DNA of 63,710 nt, filler included, from Chrysochromulina tobinii (taxonomy: Eukaryota), in NCBI GenBank assembly GCA_001275005.1. It is 4 parts of 4 records of this genome, joined end to end, with 100 filler letters (N's around TTAATTAATTAA, not from the genome) between each part and the next. Parts side by side here need not be neighbours in the genome. Positions count along the whole stretch, not along the records: positions 47,171 to 63,710 come from JWZX01001079.1; 3 more parts are not named here. One strand, written 5' to 3'. This document shows, piece after piece, positions 22,167 through 63,710 of the stretch. The position numbers were made by a program, and so were the translations under genes. The notes under the pieces are model-generated. The model had not been told where the DNA came from. It saw nothing but the letters and a program-made list of their open reading frames with translations, and searched no databases. Numbering within the stretch: the first letter of the stretch is position 1; each line of letters opens with the position of its first letter.

Positions 22167-22266
22167 NNNNNNNNNNNNNNNNNNNNNNNNNNNNNNNNNN
22201 NNNNNNNNNNTTAATTAATTAANNNNNNNNNNNNNNNNNNNNNNNNNNNNNNNNNNNNNNNNNNNN
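22167..22266. other. Assembly spacer (N-run with TTAATTAATTAA six-frame stop linker)
   Basis: 100-nt N/TTAATTAATTAA/N block, identical to the other two. Confidence 0.98.
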
Positions 22267-43273: not shown

Positions 43274-43373
43274 NNNNNNNNNNNNNNNNNNNNNNNNNNN
43301 NNNNNNNNNNNNNNNNNTTAATTAATTAANNNNNNNNNNNNNNNNNNNNNNNNNNNNNNNNNNNNNNNNNNNN
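43274..43373. other. Assembly spacer
   Basis: 100-nt N/TTAATTAATTAA/N block. Confidence 0.98.
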
Positions 43374-47070: not shown

Positions 47071-47170
47071 NNNNNNNNNNNNNNNNNNNNNNNNNNNNNN
47101 NNNNNNNNNNNNNNTTAATTAATTAANNNNNNNNNNNNNNNNNNNNNNNNNNNNNNNNNNNNNNNNNNNN
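47071..47170. other. Assembly spacer
   Basis: 100-nt N/TTAATTAATTAA/N block. Confidence 0.98.
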
Positions 47171-48183
47171 CCCCCCCGCCGGCAGCCGCACCGGAGAGCG
47201 CCGCGTCGGGCAGCGCCGTGTCGGGCGCGGAGACCGGCGGGCTCGACGCCGCGCTGCGCGCCAATGTCGAGTCACAGCTCGAGCGGCTTCTGGCGCAGCT
47301 CGAAGATCTGGAAGAGCTCAAGGAGGACCTGTCGGAGGAGGAGTACGTCGAACGGCCTCAAATGGCCTCGGAGTGCCTCTTGATTGCCTCTTGATTGCCT
47401 CTGATTGCGTCTGATTGCGTCTGATGGCCTCGGAGTGCCTCTTGATTGCCACTGAGGACCTCTGAGAACACTTTCGAGTGCCTCCCTCATCATCTCTGAG
47501 TGCCTCCCTCATCATCTCTGAGTGCCTCCCTCATCATCTCTGAGTGCCTCCCTCATCATCTCTGATTGCCTCCCTCATCATCTCTGATTGCCTCCCTCAT
47601 CAGGTACAAGGCGACCAAGGAGGACACACTGGCGCAACTCAAGGAGTTCCAAACGTCCCTCGCCAAGATGGCCTCGGGCTCGATGACGCTGCAGTCGAAC
47701 CTCGAAAAGACGCGGCTCGCCGTCTCGGCGGCCGTCTCCGGCGCCTTCCAGACACCCGAGGTCAGCCGGCCCTTCGCCTCCACGCAGCCCGCCGCATGCA
47801 AGTGCTCACCACGGCGCCCTCCCCTCCCGTTTCCCCACAGGTCATCCGGCTCTTCGCCTCCAAGCAGCCCGCCGCGATGCGCCGCCGGCTCGCCGAGATG
47901 GAGCGAGATGTCAAGCTCGGCAAGCTCGCGGCCGCGGCCTTCGACGGCATGAAGTCCGAGATGCTGGTCGCACTCAAGAAGCTCGGGGAGCCGCTCAGCG
48001 CGAGCGAGGAGGCCTTCCTGGGCGCAAACAAGTCCGCGTCCCTCTCGGAGTTTGAGGCGGTCGATGATAATGCGGACCAGGTGAGCCAGCTGCCGGTGAA
48101 CCTCTGATTGCGTCTGATTGCGTCTGATTGCGTCTGATGGCCTCCCTCATCAGGTGAGCCAGCTGCCGGTGAACCTCTCGTGA
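47171..48183 (+). CDS. LZIC: LZIC (leucine zipper and ICAT-homologous) protein, 5' truncated; introns 47343-47603, 47761-47840, 48081-48153
   Basis: Spliced: NVESQLERLLAQLEDLEELKEDLSEEE|YKATKEDTLAQLKEF..AFQTPE|VIRLFASKQP..LKKLGEPLSASEEAFL. Confidence 0.9.
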
Positions 48184-48690: not shown

Positions 48691-50388
48691 ATGACGACTT
48701 CCGCGTCACAGTGGATATACCCAAGTTTGGCGCTCAACTGCATCTTCTTCGTGCACCTCGTTGTGCGCGGCAATCTTGTCCCATGTAGTGCTGTGCCATG
48801 TTTCGTGGCGACGCCGTCTGCAAGTTCAGAGACCCCGTCTGCGAGGTCAGCGACCCCGTCTGCAAGCTCAGAGGCCGAATCCATGCCTCCAAGGGACCCA
48901 CAGAGTTTGCCAATCTGGGCCAGGTTCGCACGGTATCCAGGGCCCGATTGGAACAAGCTCTTGGCCGACGAGAAGGTGGAGCGAAAACCCCATCGAACTT
49001 CTCCGCCGACGCCGCCGTATCCGCCGCCAGGGCCCACTCAGACGGTTGGTTCGCCAACTTGCACGCATTTGCTGGAGTGCAGCCTCTCCAAGGGTATGCG
49101 GTCCAAGGTGTACCAAGCGTTCCAGAATGGATACACGCACCGGATCCCAGACGAACTTGGATACGAGAATGGCATCCGAGACCTCGCCGACGGCGGCAGC
49201 GAGCTCCTCGTCCCGATTCGAAAGCAAATCATGCCGCCCGCTGCCAACATCCAGCTTGACTGGAAGCCTGCGCCGTGGCCCACACGCATCGATCTCAACC
49301 ACCTCAACTGGGCAGCCCTTCCAAATGGGGAGAGGTTCCGCGAGTGTGGGAAATCGCATGCACTCACTAATGAAGTGCACTTATACTGCAAGTGCGTGCT
49401 CCGCTTGCGTCGACCGTTTGCTCCTGGAGCCCCCACCACCTCGAAGCGGGCGCCTCAGGAGCCGTCCTTTGTTTGCCCGCAGGTTTTTCACAAAGCAGGC
49501 CCTCTTGTGGAATAAGGACTATTGGCCGGGTGCGGAGCCCTACGACGACATCCCCGACCACGTGTTCGATCGGCCAGACGTGCGGCTGGTGCTTGATCTA
49601 GGTGCCGGCAACGGCAACCTCGCCGTCAACTTGTTCCGGCGATATGGCGATCGCGTCATCACGGTGTCCGCCACGCTCATCGTCGCCGCCGAGGCAGGCA
49701 CGCTCACGCCGCCCTTCCTGCAACGGATGACATGCAACTGATTACATGCTGATGACATGCAACTGATGACATGCAACTGATGACATGCTGATTACAGGCA
49801 CGCTCACGCCGCCCTTCATGCAACTGATCGCGGCGCGTGGCTTCCCCACTGTGGCGGTCGACATCTACTCATTCTTCCCCTTTGGTGAATCAACGTTTGA
49901 CGTGGTCCACACGAGCTGGGTCTATCACAGCGGCTTCACGCGCCACGCCATCATGGAGATGTGAGCACTCGCCACGTGATTCCACCCGGGCCTCACAAAC
50001 GCTGTCACGTGATTCGAACCTGGCCTCACAAACACGCTGTGTGCCTGGCTGAGCGGCGGTACCCGATCGGTTCCGTTGGGCAGGTACTGATTACAAATGA
50101 TTACATGCTGATTACATGCTGATTACATGCTGATTACCGTTGGGCAGGTACCGCGTGCTGCGCCCCGGCGGGTACTTGATCCATACGGTGTGGGATAAGA
50201 TGGCCTCCCTCCGGGGCACGCTGCTCCTCGAGTCGCTCGCCGCGAAGATGAATTGGAAGCTTCTCGCTCATTACGAGACCATGAAGGGGCATAATGTCAC
50301 CAAGGCGAGGCTCCGGGGGGACAAGGTGCCCTACGACTGCTACAAGACCGTCTACCAGATGCCGAGCTACAAGTACTCGAAGAGGTAG
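48691..50388 (+). CDS. Type II membrane class I SAM-dependent methyltransferase; introns 49392-49482, 49698-49797 (GC-AG), 49961-50147
   Basis: N-terminal hydrophobic anchor; VLDLGAGNG, PFMQLIAARG, FPFGESTFDVVH, EM|YRVLRPGGYL assembled across introns. Confidence 0.82.
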
Positions 50389-50732: not shown

Positions 50733-53700
50733 ATGGCGCGCAAGACGCACAAAAAGTCGCTGCAAGAGTACATGGAAGAGAATGGGATTGGCGTCGGGGA
50801 TCCGGACGACGATGAGGAAAGCGTGGTGGCGCCCATTGTGCAGGAGACGCCGCGGCTCGTCACACGTGCCCTTCGGACGGAGCACCTGCAGCCGCTCATC
50901 GACCTCGTCTTCTCGGACAGCACCGAGGTGCAACGCAACGCGACGCGCTTGCTCGGCACGCTGGCCCTCAACGCCGATAACATCGACATCCTGATCGACT
51001 CTGGCTCGTTGGGGCCGCTGCTGACGATGGCAGGGTCGACCGACTCGTCGGTGCGGCGCGCGGCGCTTGCAGGCCTCGCGCACATGAGCTCACGCGACGA
51101 CATTCGGACGAAGCTTTGCGCGGTGGCCGGCGGGCTCCAGACGGTGGTCGCCGGCGTCACATGCAGCGACGGGCCGTCGAGGTTGGCCGCGGCCGAGTGC
51201 ATGGCCAACATCGCCACCTCCCTGAAGCTGCGTGGGAGGCTGATTGACAGCAAGGTGGGCGGGCTGCCCGCGCTGCTCTCGCTGCTCACGTCGCGCACGT
51301 CCGAGCTCAAGCGCTGGGGCATGCTCACGCTGCAGCGCCTCGCCGTCTGCCGGAAGACCAATGGTGCCATCATCACCACCAAAGACGACCCCGAAGGCGA
51401 CGGTTACGCGGACGAGCTACTTAAGGCAGGCGTGCTGCAGCCGCTGCTCACGATGCTCCGGGCGGGCACGATGAGTCTCGAGGAGGACCTGCGCACGCAG
51501 GCCATGTGCACCGTCTACTCTCTGGCCGACGCGAATGAGGAGATCAAGAAGAAGCTCGGCGAGCACCCGGTGAGGGCCGAGATTTCCCTGAATGACGAAC
51601 CCCTGATGAAACTGTGACGGAACTGTGACGAGCCCGATAGCTCGGCGAGCGCACCCGGTGTGAATGCCTCGACGAGAGCACACGGGCGAGTGTGCCATGG
51701 AGCGCCTTTGAGTGATGAGTGACGTTGATGATGAGTGGCGCTGATGAGTGTCTCTTGATCGCCTCTTGATCTTCCCTTGAGAGCCCCTGATGGCCCCTGA
51801 TGGCCCCTTGAGGGCCCCCTGAGAGCCTCCGATGGCCCCTTGAGGGCCATGGCCCCAGAATTGCAGTGGTCATCAGAATTGCAGGTGCTCGTGAAGGCCA
51901 TTGTGGGCTTGCTGACGACCACTGATTGCCTCTGATGACCACTGATTGCCTCCCTCATCAGGTGCTCATGAAGGCCATAGTGGGCTTGCTCACGCTGGAC
52001 GACCACGCGGGCACCGGCGCGACGCAGCGCGAGGCCTGCCGCACCGTCCAGCTGCTCGCGACGCGCGCCGACAATGTGTATCGCCTCCTCGGCGCTGGCT
52101 TGATCGTTTCACTCTCGATGCTCGCCCGCACCGAGAATCTCATCAAGAAGCAGTTTGCGAGCACGATGCTGCTACGGGTCGCTACGGAAGCGGGCTGCCG
52201 GCGCTCGCTGCTCGATGCCGGTGGCGCGCGCACGCTGTGCTTCCTCTGATTGCCTCTGATTGCCTCTGATTGCCTCTGATTGCCTCTGATTGCCTCCCTC
52301 ATCAGGTGGCGCGCGCACGCTGTGCTTCCTATGCCGCCCGTCGCTTCCTCGCAAGGTCGTCCGTCCCGCGGCGAACGCGATCTCACTGATGTGCAGCTCG
52401 GCCGAGTGCGTGCCGTCGCTGCTCGACACGGGCGCCGGCTCGGTGCTTGCGACGCTCGCGAGCTCGTCCGACCCGGAGATGCTCCTCGGCGGCTGCCAGG
52501 CGCTCGCCAACATGCTCGCGTGCATGGCGGAGGAGGCGGGGACGGTGGCCAAGGCGGTGAACCGCGCGGGCAGCCCGGTTGTGAACCGCGCGGGCAGCCC
52601 GGTTGTGTCGCGCCCCACCTCGCCAATCTCCCAAACCTCGGCCGAAGAAGACGAGGAGCGCCGTCCCGGGCGGGGCGCCACCGAACCGGAGGGGGCGCCG
52701 TCCCGGGCGCCCCCTCCCAAACCGGAGGGGGCGCCCACGAGCGCCGTCTCGAGCGCCGACCCGCTCGGCCGGGTGCGCGAGGCCGTCCGAGTGACCGACC
52801 AGCTGCATGCTGATGGCCTCCCTCATTGCATGCTGATGGCCTCCCTCATCAGGTGCGCGAGGCTGTCCGAGTGACCGACCAGCTGCTTCAGCAAGGCGCC
52901 CTCTCCGTCTTCCTGTCGGCCGCGACCTCCTCCGATCGCCAGCTGCAGCTGCATGCCTCCCGCGGCCTCAAATTCATCGCGATGCGCTCGCCACTCTTTG
53001 CGCGCGTCCTCGCCCGCAAGGGCGCCGCGCGCGCCCTCGCTGCGCTGCTGGGTGCCGCGCGTGAGGAAACGCTCCGGAACGCAGTAACGGCCCTCCACCT
53101 GATCACCACGGCGCTCTGTGAGGGCGTTGGGCGCGAGCCTCTCACGGCCAAGCGTCTCTCGACGGTGCGCGGAGGGCAGCTCTGATGGCATGCTGATTGC
53201 ATGCGGATTACATGCTGATGGCATGGTGATTACATGGTGATTACATGCGGATTACATCTCTGATCGCGTGCTGCTTGCCCATCTGCTCGCGTGCTGCTCG
53301 CCTCCCTCATTGCATGCTGCTCGCCTCCCTGATCAGGTGCGCGGGGTGCTCGAGCTCGGTGTGGTGGGCACACCCAAGGAGCTCTGGGCGCGCCTGAATG
53401 AGGACGGTGGGCTGCCCGCGGCGACGCTCCTTCGGCTCGCATGCCACTTTGAGGGGCTGCACGCCGAGGCGGGGGAGCGCTCGCGAGCGATACTCGAATT
53501 GCTCAAGCCGGGCTTGCTGCAGTCCCTCGACATCGACGACCCAAGACGCGCCAGCCAGTCGGCGAAGGCGATCGCTGAGCGCCGAGGGAGGAATAAATCC
53601 ATCGCCAAGGTCCAGAACCTGTTCCGCCTTTCTCGCAGCCTGAAGCCGGCCGCGGCCGACCCGTTCACCGCGTTCAGCCGACCGACTACCTCGGCGAACG

Positions 53701-54435
53701 CCACGGGCGCCGCCTCGGGCGCGGCCTCGAACTTTGCGTCGCTCGTGCGCGCGGCCAAGCTGGGCAACGGGCTCGTGGCGAACGACTCGCCGCGCTGGGC
53801 CAAGGCGTGGGGAGGCGCCTTTGGGGCCAAGGCGGGCTCGGCCGCGGCTGCCTCGGTACTGAACGCGCAAGCGACAGGCGCGGACGCGATCTCGAAGCTA
53901 ACCCTAACCCTAACCCTAACCCCAACCCTGACCCTAACCCTGACCCTGACCCTAACCAGGCGCGGACGCGCTGTCGAAGCTCAAGGAGGCCGCGGCCCAC
54001 GCACGGAAGGCGTCCCAAGAGGCCGGTCCCAAGTTCAAGTCGCTCGCGGCCGCTGCAGGCGCCCACGATGGCGCGGGGAAGCGGACGCTCTTCGCGATCC
54101 TGCACCAGCCTCGCCCGCCCGCGACGGCGCGTCCCGAGGCGAGCGGCGCACGCGCGCGAGCGGTCAGCCTCCTGGGAGCAGAGACCGCCTCGTCCTCAGC
54201 CGAGCCAGCCCAATCCGAAGCGCCAGGTGCGCCAGGAGCGCCGGCGGTCACCAAAGAGAGGCACACCGGTAGGCCTCCTGCTTTGGGATTGTGGCTCGGC
54301 GGCGCCGTCGGCACGAGCAGCGCTGCTGGAGCAGCTGCTGGGGCGATGGTGGTGGCGGCGCCCGAGAAGGAGAAGCGGATCTCGGCAGTGCGGCGCGCTC
54401 AGATGACTCTCGAGGCCCAGGATCTGACGCTTTAA
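50733..54435 (+). CDS. Armadillo-repeat protein; introns 51570-51961, 52221-52305, 52773-52852, 53165-53336, 53878-53959 (GC-AG)
   Basis: ARM repeats (LQPLIDLVFSDSTEVQRNATRLLGTLA, GGLPALLSLLTS); the five introns give a continuous frame to TAA at 54433-54435. Confidence 0.82.
53900..53959 (+). repeat. Interstitial telomere-type (CCCTAA/CCCTGA)n array forming the body of an intron
   Basis: AACCCTAACCCTAACCCTAACCCCAACCCTGACCCTAACCCTGACCCTGACCCTAACCAG. Confidence 0.92.
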
Positions 54436-56335: not shown

Positions 56336-59300
56336 TCATTGCCGCAGCGTGACATAGGGCGGCTCATCGTTGGCGCAGCGGCAGAAGCCGCATGGCACGA
56401 TCGCCATCAGATCGGCTGGAGGGCGGAGAGTGCCCTCCTTCCCGCGGCACTGGTAGCACGCAGAGGGCAGGTTGCAGTTGTTTGCACGGCCCGTGTCGCT
56501 TCCTAATTTGGCACGGCCCGTGTCGAGCGCGGCCGACTGGTTGTTCCAGAGCTGCTTGAACTCGTGCGGCAGGTGGTCGATGGTCTTGGCGCACCTGATG
56601 AGGGGGTGGGGTGTCGGAGGCCATCAGACGCAATCAGCGGCCATTAGCGGCCATCAGCGGCCATCAGCGGCCATCAGCGCACTGGTAAGAGTAGACGTTC
56701 CACTCGGCCTGCTGGCTGAACCAGCACTGTGCATACTCGGGGTGTCGCGCCATGATGTCTCGTCGGTTGCGCGCAAATTGGGCACAGTTCCATGCAGTGT
56801 AGAGGCCAGTGAAGATCGGGTCGTGGCGCGCGCGCTGGTTGCCCGGGTGCTTGACCACAGAGTCGCCCGTGACGAAGTGGAACGTGAGCCGCGGCGAGAG
56901 CAACGCCATCCGACAGCCCGCGTGCGCATGCAACGCCTGCATCAGGTCCGTTGCGATCATTGAGACGCCCACCTGATGAGGGAGGCAATCAGTATGCCAT
57001 CAGAGAGGCAATCAGCATGCCATCAGAGACGCCCACCTGATGAGGGCTCGCCATCATTCGCCATCATTCGCCATCATTCGCCATCAATCGTCATCATTCG
57101 CCATCATTCGCCATCAATCGTCATCATTCGCCATCATTAGTCATCAATCGTCATCACCATTGTGAAACCGAGTGAGAGCTGCGGCACCCAGCGGCGCGGG
57201 AAGGTCCAACAGTCGTGACCTGGATGGGCGAGGCCCGTCCCACGCCATCCGAGAGCTTGCTCCACGCCGAAGGTGACGGGAGCGTGCTCGTACTCCTCTC
57301 TGATGAAGCTGATTGGAATGTCGGGCATCAGCTGTGCCAACGGGTAGAACGGGTAGGGGGAGGGGCGAGAGGGAGGGCAGGGGAAGGGGGTGACGAGGAG
57401 GGAGGTAACCTCAGGAGCACACCCAAAGCACATCGGGAGCTCATCGGGAGCTCATCGGGAGCTCATCGGGAGCTCATCGGGAGCTCATCGGGAGCTCATC
57501 GGGAGCTCATCGGGAGCTCACCTGCAGCTGACGCGCGAGCTTGAGGTAGAACGGCGCCTGCACGCCAATGTCGATGTTTGAGTACGTCAGGTGCTCTCCC
57601 TCGCCCTTGAGGTAGCCGGCGTACCTGATGAGGGAGGCAATCGGATGCAATCTCCTGAGGGGCGGCGTAACTGATGAGGGAGGCTTTTTGATGCGAGCGG
57701 CCATCCGAGGCCATCGGTGGCAATCAGCAGGCAAACCACGTACAGGATCATGTTGAGGAAGGGGAGCTTGGCGTGATGACGGAAGCTCGGGAGCAGCGTC
57801 GCGACCGACACGTTGAGCAGCGCGACGGCGAAGCCCTGCTGTGCGCACTGCGGCAGCCGGGCAGCGTCTTCGGGGAACATGGCGCAGACCACATCGACGC
57901 GCACGCCCTGGGTGTTTGCGAGGGCGACGGCGTGCGAGATGGAGGCGATGGTGATCTCTTGCGCGCGCGCATGCTCGGCGTCGTGCTCGGAGTAGAACGG
58001 GTTGATCACGTGCGTGATCGAGATGTTCTGCGCGCGCCGCGGCGGCGCCGCACGCGCCGCCCACTCGGAGAACCAATGCTCAGCACGGCGCGGCGGCTCG
58101 GGCTGCAGCACGCGCACGACTGGCTGGCGGACGAATTCTTGGGTCCACGCGCCGCAGCAGCGTGGCGGCTCGGCGCTCGACTTTGCCTCGCGGAGTCGTG
58201 TCTCGATGAAGGTCTTGCGCACCTGGACAGAAGGAGGCGCGCCATCAGCGGCAATCAAGGGAGATCGCACCTGGACAGAGGGGGCGCGCCATCAGCGGCA
58301 ATCAAGGGAGATTGCACCTCGTCCGACCAGGCGGAGGTCGTGCCACCGTCCATCGGCGCTGTCGCATTGCTCTTCTTCTTGGGCTTCGCCTTGAGGGAGA
58401 GGGTGAAGGCGCGCTGTACCGAGCTGATGGGTACCTCAAGGAACTCGGCCAACGGCGCCGGGTACCTGAAGCAAGGGGGGCGCCGTGGTGGGCATGGGTG
58501 CCGTTAAGGCGCCGTGGTGGGCATATGCATGCCGTGGCGGGTACTTGAAGCAAGGGGGGCGCAATCAGCGGCCATCCGCGGCAATCGGCTGTCGTCAGTG
58601 GAACTCAGAGGCACTTAGAGACACACAGAGGCACTCAGTGGCACACAGAGGCCGTCAGAGGCCATCAGAGGCACTCAGTGGCACCCAGAGGCGCTCAGGT
58701 GCACTTCGGCGCACCGCTCAGGGCGCAAAAGCATGTCCGTGTAGTTGACGACGCGGTACTCCTCCGCGCGGAGCATCTGCAGCTGTGAATACATCTGGTC
58801 GAGCTGTGACAAGAAGAGGCTCACCTGTGGTTGGCGTAGTGCGTGGCGCCGTGGTGAGCACATGCATGCCGACGCGTGCACGCGCGCCGTGGTGAGCATG
58901 CGCATGCCGACGCGTGCGCTCGCTGTGACATGAGGCGAGGCGAGGCGAGGCGGCTCTCACCTGCTGGATATCATCAGAGGTCATCAGGGAGGTCATCAGA
59001 TGTCATCAGCGAGGCGAGGCGGCTCTCACCTGCTGGATATCATCAGAGGTCATCAGGGAGGTCATCAGATGTCATCAGCGAGGCGAGGCGGCTCTCACCT
59101 GCTTGTGCAGCTTGAAGGTGCGGCCAGCCCGCCGCCAGATCTTTGGGAGCCCGCGGTTGTTCATCGACATGATCGCGTCGATCGGGTCGCGGTACAGCAC
59201 GATCACCTTGAGCCGCACGCCGAGCAGGTCGCACATGTACACGATGTCCGCCAGGTCGGGGTAGTGGGTTCCGTCCTCGGTCTCGTTCGACGAGCGAGAA

Positions 59301-60390: not shown

Positions 60391-60463
60391 TTCCCTATAG
60401 TCTAGTTGGTTAGGATAACCCGCTTTCACCGGGTCGACCTGGGTTCGAGTCCCAGTGGGGAAA
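60391..60463 (+). tRNA. tRNA-Glu (anticodon TTC)
   Basis: Acceptor TTCCCTA/TGGGGAA; D-arm; anticodon stem ACCCG/CGGGT with CT-TTC-AC loop (60425-60427); T-arm CTGGG-TTCGAGT-CCCAG. Confidence 0.93.
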
Positions 60464-60824
60464 AAAAAAAACTTGCTTCCTTTGTCAACCTCTTTTGCAC
60501 CTGTCCGGATCCGACGAGTCCCAGTGGGTCCGGATCCGTGCGAAATGACGCGCCCCGGGCGGCCTCCCCGCCCCCGCGCCCCCGGGTGCGGGCGGTGGGC
60601 CCGCCCCCGCGTTGGGGTCGTGGCTCGTGCCGCGCCGCGGGGGGAACCATGCCGCATGCGGGGATGGGGGAACTCTTACTAAACCGGGCGGCGTGGGATC
60701 TAGAGCATCTTTGGCCCGTTCGATTACGATTTCGTCCTATAAGTATCACCAAAACAATGCGCAGCATGCGTGTATGGGGCACGGTAGCCGCGACGCCCCT
60801 CGTGTGTCCTCTGAGTCCACCTTC

Positions 60825-63710
60825 TCAACTGAGAGAAGTTTTCTCGAGCGCGCCGCTCAGCTTGCTTGTTGCCCCATCGGCGCCGTCGCGGGCGGCGCGC
60901 GCCGCGCCGAGCGCACTCGAGAGGTGGATGATCCACAAGTTACGTTCCTCCTCAGTCGGGGCGGCAAGCACGACGCCGCCGTCGGGCGCGCCGTCCCGAG
61001 CGGTGAGGCGGAACGCGTAGGGCAGATTGTCCGACGGAGGCTGCGACGACCAGTCATCAGAGGTCGTCAGAGGTCATCAAAGGTCATCAGAGGTCATCAG
61101 AGGTCATCAGGGCAGATTGTCCGACGGAGGCTCTGGGGAAATGGGTGCTACGACCAGTGGGGCAGGGGAGGGGGCGCCCAGGACGACGCACGGTTGAGGC
61201 GCGCGTCAGCACAGATCAGAACGCGGCGCCGCCACGCGCGCTCGCGGCACTGTGGGGAGATCGGGGAGATCGATGGGAGATCGATGGGAGATCGATGGGA
61301 TAAGAGGGGGTCGCGTCGTCCCGGGCAGCGCACCGTGGCTTGCTCCACCCGATCGAAGCCGGAGAGCGGTACGATGCCGCGCGCGTGCTGCGGAGGGTCG
61401 TCGGCGTTCTGGTAGTACACGATCGTGCCCTCGTCGCGCAGGCGGAAGTGGCGAGCGACCCAATCCCGTGCCTGCCCTGTCTCCGCCTCGCTCCGCTGCG
61501 CAATGTGCACCTGATGAGGGAGGCAATCAGCATCCCATCAGAGAGGCAATCAGAGGCCATCCTGATCGAGCAGTCTCCGCCTCGCTCGCACTGATGAGGG
61601 AGGCAATCGGCATCCCATCAGAGATGCACTCGGCACCTTGGAGGCTCGCTTATAGAGGAGGCCGCTCAACTCGGTGCCTCGCGATGTGGCGTCTTCGGCC
61701 GCACTGGCGGAGCTACTCGGTACTTTGATGACCTCTGATTGCCTGGCATGAGTGGAAACTCCCCCGCCGGCGGTCGCGGCGGTCGCGACGGGCAGCGGCG
61801 AAGAGGGCGGCGCCACGGCGGACGAGGAAGCCGACAGCTGCGCGCCACAGGCGCAGAGGACGCGTATCCAGTCATCGCGTTCCCGCGCCGAGTCCGACGC
61901 GAGGTGGTACCTGATGAGGGAAGCCATCCGAGGTCATCAGAGGTTATCAAGAGGCAATCAGGTGAGCGGTGCCTGATGAGGGAAGCCTTTAGGGAAGCCA
62001 TTCCTCGGAGGTCACATCAGAGGCACCACTCGGCAGGTCATCCGAGGTCATCCGAGGTCATCCGAGGCCATCCGAGGTCATCCGAGGTCATCCGAGGTCA
62101 TCAGGGGCCATGCGTACGTCCGATTGCTCGTGTGCACCGCAAACGAATAGTGGCGGGCAAGCGAATTCTCTCCCTCGCCATGAGGCTGGATGATCAGTGG
62201 CGTGGGCCGCGCGCCGGCGCCATTGCTCATCACGGCGCTATGGCTCGACTCGCGACCACCGTTGGTGCCGCCGCCGCCGCTGCCGTGCGCCACGGCCGCG
62301 CCCGCACCGCCGTGGTGAGCACTTGCATGCGCGGGAGCGGCCGCGCCCGCACCGCCGTCGGGTGCCGTGGCGCCATAGTGGGCGCCGTAGTGGGCGCCGC
62401 TGCTCAGCTCGGCGCCGCTGTCAGACTTGCCGAACGCCCTTACACTGGCTGACGGGCTCGAGCCGCCGCTGATCGAGATGACGCCGAGAGAGAGGGGGCG
62501 GGGCGTCGTGGTGAGCGCTTGCATGCAACGCACGCCATCAGAGGCAATCAACGCACCTGCTCGAGCGGCACCCACTCCAACTTCTGATGAGGGACACAAT
62601 CACATGCAATCAGAGGCACTCAAGGCACCTGATCGAGATGACGCCGAGAGGCTGGAATGGGTTGGACATCTCGGCCGCGTAGTAGTAGAAGAGCTCGCCG
62701 TCGCACAGGCAAAAGTAGCGCCTCTTCCAGGACGGGACCCGCCGCCCCTTTTTGTAGAGATGGCCCTGCGAACCGAGGCCACGGGATGCGATGAGATGAA
62801 TTGGGAGATGCGATGAGATGCATTGGGAGATGCGATGAGATGCATTGGGATGCGATGAGATACGCCGAGTGACCACTCCGGGGTCACTCGGCGTCAGAGT
62901 GGTCACTCGGCGTCACTCAGCCGTCACTCAGCCGTCACTCTGCGGCCACTCAGCGGCCGCTCTGAGGAGCTCTCAGCGGCACCCACCTGCTTGGTGCACA
63001 CTCGATGGAGTGACTGGTGCAGCGCCGTCTCGTCTTCGCCGAACTCGGCGCCGTGTTGGGCGTCTGCCTCCACAAAGTAGCAGAAGAGCGACGAGGCCGC
63101 CAGCGCCGGGATGGCCACGCACTGCTGCAGGTAGCGCTCGAGCGCCACGCGTCGCTCCTCGACGAAGCTCGGGTGAAGGTTGCCGAAGGCGCGCTTCGCT
63201 GGGAGGGCCTGCGGCACTAGCGGGCCGAACTCCTTGCGCAGCAGCTGGTCCAGCAGGTTGAAGTGCTTGTACCTGTGGGGAGAGGCGAGGGCGCCGTGGT
63301 GAGCGCGTGCATGCACGGCAGGCCATCAGCATGCAATCAACGTACCGTCGCTCGGAGCGAGAGAGGGCGCCGGGGTGAGCGCTTGCATGCACGGCAGGCC
63401 ATCAGCATGCAATCAACGTACCGTCGCTCGGATCGCAGCGTCGTCTGCACGCCGTGCACGAGCAGCACGGAGTCGACCAGGTACGTGACGTACTCGTTGC
63501 CATGCCCACCCTCGCGCTGACGCTGGGTACCGGCGAGGCGCACCGAGTGGAGCACAACGTCCTTTGATCGCGCACGCAGCTCGGTGCCCGTCGGCGACAA
63601 GGGCGGCCCTCGCCCCTCGAGCGCCGTGGTGAGCGCCTCGTCGCCCGCGTGCATGCCCACACCGATCGTGAGCGCTGTGGTGAGCAGCCCGCCGCCGAGC
63701 TCACCACGGC
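60825..63710 (-). CDS. PX + two PH domain protein, 5' end beyond the window; introns 63273-63421, 62766-62986, 62469-62628, 61911-62117, 61511-61636, 61041-61333
   Basis: PX: YVTYLV..ERR|YKHFNLL..LPAKR..FVEERRVALERYLQ; PH1: GHLYKKGRRVPSWKRRYFCL..RT|YHLASDSARERDDWI; PH2: SGLLYKR..WVARHFRL..LAAPTEEERNLWI. Confidence 0.87.

Follow-up and report, generated by a model that had tools for sequence, protein, structure and literature searches.

In recursive splicing through a zero-length exon, as in Drosophila ratchet points, S. pombe SPNCRNA.445 and human introns, an acceptor is directly followed by a donor inside an intron that is lost completely from the mRNA. The original prediction for the locus described here placed this process mainly in very long animal introns, which understates its range: a zero-length exon is reported in the 336-nt S. 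pombe intron of SPNCRNA.445 (10.1101/226894), and human introns shorter than 1 kb are reported to yield recursive lariats, conventional ones being the more common (PMC10156609). Tandem genomic duplication of a segment containing AG|GT makes splice sites by head-to-tail copying, and the outer sites leave the frame unchanged; in the cases described (PMC3265369, PMC4974935) an exon segment thereby becomes a new intron. Fungal stwintrons (PMC7138796) are short complex introns with duplicated splice elements for which removal in one or two steps is possible; an element of the outer intron is split by the inner one, so that splicing must proceed in two steps or else yields another product. The Introners of Chrysochromulina sp. 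are short introns with a direct repeat of a few bases, a 4-bp target duplication (PMC9860276); Introners are recognized by many near-identical full-length copies at unrelated positions. No account of junction duplications in haptophyte introns was found in the literature searched, most subscription papers lying outside its reach, and the accessible part of the C. tobin genome paper (PMC4580454) gives no intron size range.

Here we describe a doubled 95-nt intron, the third of its gene, in Chrysochromulina tobinii. The window, by which we mean the whole stretch of DNA that was analysed, comprises 63,710 nucleotides, filler included. Like recursive introns, intron 3 contains an acceptor that abuts a donor and is fully lost from the mRNA, but known recursive sites are conserved and have intermediates or lariats, whereas here neither of the latter was seen in RNA contigs, the middle GT is missing from one allele, and the segments measure only 47 and 48 nt. 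A stwintron was ruled out because no prior splicing is needed to restore either outer splice site: the donor and the acceptor at the two ends are already intact. The two units lie end to end, and the mRNA is identical if they leave in a single step. The 6-nt direct repeat at both ends of intron 3 is of the kind that marks an Introner target-site duplication. Intron 3 itself is a local tandem copy. Shared intron motifs recur across the window; from this intron it is only a 17-nt core motif that does so (35 matches when up to 3 mismatches are allowed, 0.47 expected), and no further full-length copy of the unit turned up in the rest of the window. In origin the doubling comes nearest to tandem duplication across AG|GT, with the difference that an existing intron and its acceptor junction appear to have been copied, with no new intron position. 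In our judgement the 95-base intron is likely a tandem duplication across the acceptor junction that is cut out in one step, the middle AG|GT being ignored.

Structure of intron 3 and its host gene

The host gene has seven introns (274, 249, 95, 119, 190, 185 and 88 nt), all of which fit the piece coordinates of RNA contigs; removal of all seven leaves one open frame of 892 codons. Pfam gave no family for 4/4 proteins; Atlas leads for the host protein are sulfotransferase-like in the front part (under 0.9) and glycosyltransferase-like in the back part. Among 12 homologs of the neighbouring EF-hand gene, the Chrysochromulina rotalis match is 60% identical, and a tRNA-like stretch was seen by eye upstream of the host gene (60405-60470, minus strand). 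The features of intron 3 and its surroundings are the following.

58223..58317, minus strand: intron 3 of the host gene, 95 nt, GT..AG; RNA joints in runs X14, X15 and X16 (CT..AC on the plus strand), open model frame
58271..58317, minus strand: unit 1, 47 nt, with the real donor GTGCAA and an internal acceptor copy
58223..58270, minus strand: unit 2, 48 nt, starting with GTGCG as the downstream exon does and ending in the real acceptor
58267..58272, minus strand: internal AG|GT junction between 58271 and 58270, the would-be zero-length exon, read from the sequence; AG|AT in allele L004
58314..58319, minus strand: 6-nt direct repeat AGGTGC at the donor junction, with further copies at 58267-58272 and 58219-58224 ("both = 6" at the RNA joint)
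58244..58248, minus strand: predicted branch-point-like CTGAT of unit 2, its A 22 nt before the 3' end, with a twin at 58291-58295 in unit 1
58318..58465, minus strand: upstream exon, 148 nt, from RNA contig pieces
57744..58222, minus strand: downstream exon, 479 nt, starting GTGCGC, from RNA contig pieces; homolog P0002 is 68% identical

As had been predicted, the two units are near-identical and each runs from GT to CAG; sequence comparison places 0 bases between them. They differ at 3 places (two substitutions and one 1-nt indel), have a longest common exact stretch of 30 nt, and are scored by TRF as a repeat of period 47 with 2.1 copies and 94% matches. The pyrimidine tract of unit 1 is 1 nt shorter in 3/3 doubled alleles seen as DNA. 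Each unit has a donor, a branch-like CTGAT, a pyrimidine tract and CAG, and intron 3 thus holds the internal YAG|GT with pyrimidine tract and branch-like motif by which a recursive splice site is recognized in sequence. RNA folding of 58213-58327 predicted a stem, around the middle site, in which the two GGCGCGCC copies pair (z = -1.63); 11/200 shuffles were equally good, and the stem was dropped as evidence.

Removal of one unit had been expected to leave either a frameshift or an insert with an in-frame TGA, so that both units must go, by recursive splicing or by skipping of the first AG. The frame is open when both units are removed and is shifted when unit 2 alone is taken out, as expected. 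Removal of unit 1 alone, however, keeps unit 2 as 16 open codons in the gene's frame with no stop, TGA sitting in the other two frames. Since unit 1 alone could be removed in frame, the argument for obligatory two-step splicing falls; recursion and skipping of the first AG stand as the two routes to full removal.

Removal of intron 3 from mature RNA

RNA evidence consists of contigs, in which rare forms are dropped, from five of the six RNA runs with the gene (X14-X18; X19 was left out). The alleles L003, L004 and those of the P series discussed below are known from DNA. In X14, X15 and X16 (3/5 runs examined) a single joint omits exactly 95 nt bounded by GT and AG, at depths of 6.4, 7.9 and 4.6, respectively, and with a short side of 88-94 letters. 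X17 ends short of intron 3 and the X18 contig stops there, so that neither bridges it. All 95 nt leave the mature mRNA, which bears out the original prediction, and with its GT..AG ends, its removal from mature RNA and the restored frame intron 3 has the properties of a U2-type spliceosomal intron.

No cover was found inside unit 1 or unit 2 in any of the five RNA runs examined (contigs, depth under 10), and no junction linking the upstream exon with the internal site was seen (contigs only, depth under 10). Introns 2 and 6, by contrast, yielded unspliced contigs. As the runs are represented by contigs that drop rare forms, a short-lived intermediate could escape notice, and contigs of mature RNA cannot tell one-step from two-step removal.

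The same data bear on a use of the first AG on some occasions, which would give a stable mRNA with 16 extra codons beside the fully spliced one. The 48-nt unit is open in frame in 3/3 doubled DNA alleles, and L004 could make a 16-residue insert. The position of intron 3 precedes the start of conservation with P0002, and the junction likely lies in a poorly conserved linker, where such an insert would fall. Against this, RNA contigs leave unit 2 uncovered in 5/5 runs examined. A product without unit 1 only would keep the frame and contain no stop, and decay would therefore not conceal it; as no cover was seen, it is not a major final product, and we consider alternative acceptors improbable.

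Alleles of intron 3

L001 and L002 have the same 95 nt as the window. L003, a divergent metagenome allele, has a 39-nt copy of the donor junction together with both units, 134 nt in all, and its middle site is AG|GT; L004, also a divergent metagenome allele, shares this arrangement, its middle site being AG|AT. The cluster of translated DNA to which P0030 belongs contains both forms: P0030 has two 39-nt copies and the doubled form, and P0001/P0029, P0031 and P0033, three distinct alleles seen in translated DNA products only, combine two 39-nt copies with one 48-nt unit. P0032 begins past the intron 3 site. Each 39-nt copy comprises 18 nt of intron start and 21 nt of exon end and is open in frame.

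L003, ~690-730, and L004, ~780-820; also P0001, P0030, P0031 and P0033: 39-nt donor-junction copies of intron 3, one or two copies

Across alleles the intron ranges from 95 to about 173 nt. A bare 48-nt intron was found in 0/7 distinct alleles covering the site, and no empty-site allele was found among the alleles examined. The single-unit alleles may be ancestral, may have collapsed from the doubled form, or may be assembly collapses. Conversely, they are what would be expected if the doubling were itself an assembly artefact of a single 48-nt intron, an explanation to which we give almost no credence: the two copies differ at three places and match exactly over at most 30 nt, a 1194-nt contig of DNA run X3 (the one examined of 13 DNA runs with a match, and possibly the window's own source) crosses both units with 0 differences and 0 gaps, and L003, L004 and P0030 are doubled with changes of their own, which in L003 and L004 include SNPs in the doubled forms.

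Base 5 of unit 2 is an exon-like G in 3/4 doubled alleles (window, L004 and P0030) and A in L003. This suggests that the copied segment began within the intron and took in five bases of the downstream exon, a pattern that L003 does not fit. The middle AG|GT is not conserved, being AG|AT in L004 and absent with its site from the single-unit alleles.

Duplicated junctions in other introns

Introns 1, 4 and 6 of the host gene served as controls. RNA contigs were aligned at 90% likeness, at which shared intron motifs give many joints. Introns 1, 4 and 6 were judged among the joints listed, with 127 more beyond the list, so that intermediates at these introns may have escaped notice.

58825..59098, minus strand: intron 1, control, 274 nt; three abutting GT..AG units of 69, 69 and 136 nt; removed whole in RNA
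57625..57743, minus strand: intron 4, control, 119 nt; exact 14-nt internal acceptor copy ending at 57671, then TT; removed whole
56973..57157, minus strand: intron 6, control, 185 nt; internal AG|GT at 57037, giving 121 and 64 nt; removed whole

The two 69-nt units of intron 1 are exact copies, and L004, which is without both, has an intron of only 132 nt. In intron 4 the internal acceptor copy lies 46 nt upstream of the last acceptor and is followed by TT in the window strain and by GT in L003 and L004. The pieces of X18 record 13 are separated by 98 letters, as for the last acceptor (144 would be expected for the internal one), with 0 differences from the window allele. In the window strain, correct mRNA from intron 4 comes only by passing an exact acceptor copy, which is skipping; because TT follows the copy, recursion is impossible there. 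An mRNA spliced at the internal acceptor would be frameshifted, and its decay could keep it from being seen. Junction duplications are present in 3/7 introns of the host gene and vary among alleles. A further donor-junction copy was noticed in intron 6 of L003.

One of these controls, intron 4, counts against recursive splicing as the main route at intron 3, in which unit 1 (47 nt) would leave first, the exon end would form a new donor with GTGCGA, and unit 2 (48 nt) would follow. Such a route fits the 95-nt end product and the complete set of splice elements in both units; the window and L003 both retain the middle GT, and the 336-nt S. pombe intron indicates that a zero-length exon can work. 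We nevertheless regard it as unlikely. The middle GT is lost in L004, and intron 4 passes an exact internal acceptor without a GT; the natural variants unable to recurse (AG|AT in L004, and AG|TT in intron 4, which is spliced whole) thus favour skipping. The lack of an intermediate in the five RNA runs points the same way, weakly, as these are contigs only, and conventional lariats outnumber recursive ones in the human introns under 1 kb. The seven RNA-fitted introns measure 88-274 nt, and the bare 48-nt form is missing from the seven alleles. That the units are too short to splice is only a lead, the shortest RNA-fitted intron being 88 nt against a possible, predicted intron of 45 nt at 62584-62628. 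The latter (minus strand, GT..AG) would bear on minimum intron length; we take the gene that holds it to have PX- and PH-like motifs.

Duplicated junctions were also sought across the window. Repeated YAG|GT junction pairs numbered 9 at 7 loci, whereas 30 block shuffles averaged 0.07, a comparison whose thresholds were set after cases had been seen and whose shuffle destroys all repeats, so that it tests non-chance repetition and not function. RNA is available for 3 of these loci, and the pair at 62629/62557 is a weak match. None was found in the 4.6 kb of extra DNA of L001. Exact CCCTCATCAG acceptor sites number 15 against 0.17 expected; GT follows 1/4 internal copies and 10/11 last copies (Fisher p 0.033, a small and post hoc comparison, with RNA support for 3/11 last copies).

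Several other stretches of the window deserve mention. Three more repeated YAG|GT pairs, 64-77 nt apart, lie on the plus strand at 48081-48153, 50084-50147 and 51885-51961 and are candidates for the doubled layout. The neighbouring gene has, on the minus strand, donor-side (76 nt) and acceptor-side junction copies at 63290-63432, 61511-61591 and 61911-61973, its internal acceptor copies being followed by TG and GC. On the plus strand, each of the predicted introns at 47761-47841, 49699-49798, 52221-52305 and 52773-52852 opens with 25-35 nt copied from the exon that follows and closes with a repeat-rich acceptor cassette, an arrangement that looks like the outcome of an insertion with a long target duplication. 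Ten copies of the 6-nt repeat CTAACC, presumably telomere-like, occur at 53898-53957 inside a gene region and are possibly intronic. The stretches at 22167-22266, 43274-43373 and 47071-47170 are masked or gap sequence, each made up of two runs of 44 N separated by 12 bases.

Origin and splicing of the doubled intron

Under duplication followed by skipping, the reading that we favour, a 48-nt core intron flanked by the 6-nt direct repeat would have been duplicated head to tail, the copy taking in the opening bases of the exon that follows. The repeat AGGTGC is the likely microhomology for this event, through slippage or repair at that point. As the next exon begins GTGCG, the copy would automatically resemble a second complete intron. 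The exons after 6/7 RNA-fitted introns of the gene begin with GT, so that any copy of an acceptor junction makes an AG|GT by itself. For the same reason each splicing event leaves behind a donor-like sequence at the exon junction, which the cell ordinarily has to disregard; in Drosophila the exon junction complex is reported to block re-splicing at regenerated donor-like sites (PMC8184009). The spliceosome would pair the first donor with the last acceptor, probably in a single step, to give the end product seen in RNA, and the middle site would drift as a neutral sequence, as its variation among alleles suggests.

Some observations speak against removal in one step. Work on stwintrons (PMC7138796) indicates that in fungi the smallest possible intron is chosen first. 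The donor GTGCGC occurs twice among the real donors of the host gene, and the regenerated site GAG|GTGCGA resembles these; this likeness, with CTGAT and CAG in each unit, would favour stepwise use of the two units. A wider proposal would have haptophyte junction duplications create AG|GT ratchet points de novo that are removed stepwise, in which case the 47- and 48-nt units would be among the smallest recursively spliced segments known and presence/absence alleles would segregate in wild populations; this we hold to be doubtful.

As a single locus intron 3 is ordinary, an intron lengthened by tandem duplication and one case of a common local habit. Its alleles, with the middle site intact, broken or absent, form a natural test set, and the 95-nt form fits one amplicon, so that skipping and recursion would be cheap to tell apart. 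Junction copies mimic mini-introns, and annotators thus risk false calls. More generally, the presence of splice-junction copies in many introns, with exact acceptor copies passed at 46-80 nt, raises the question of how the spliceosome of this organism picks the last acceptor.
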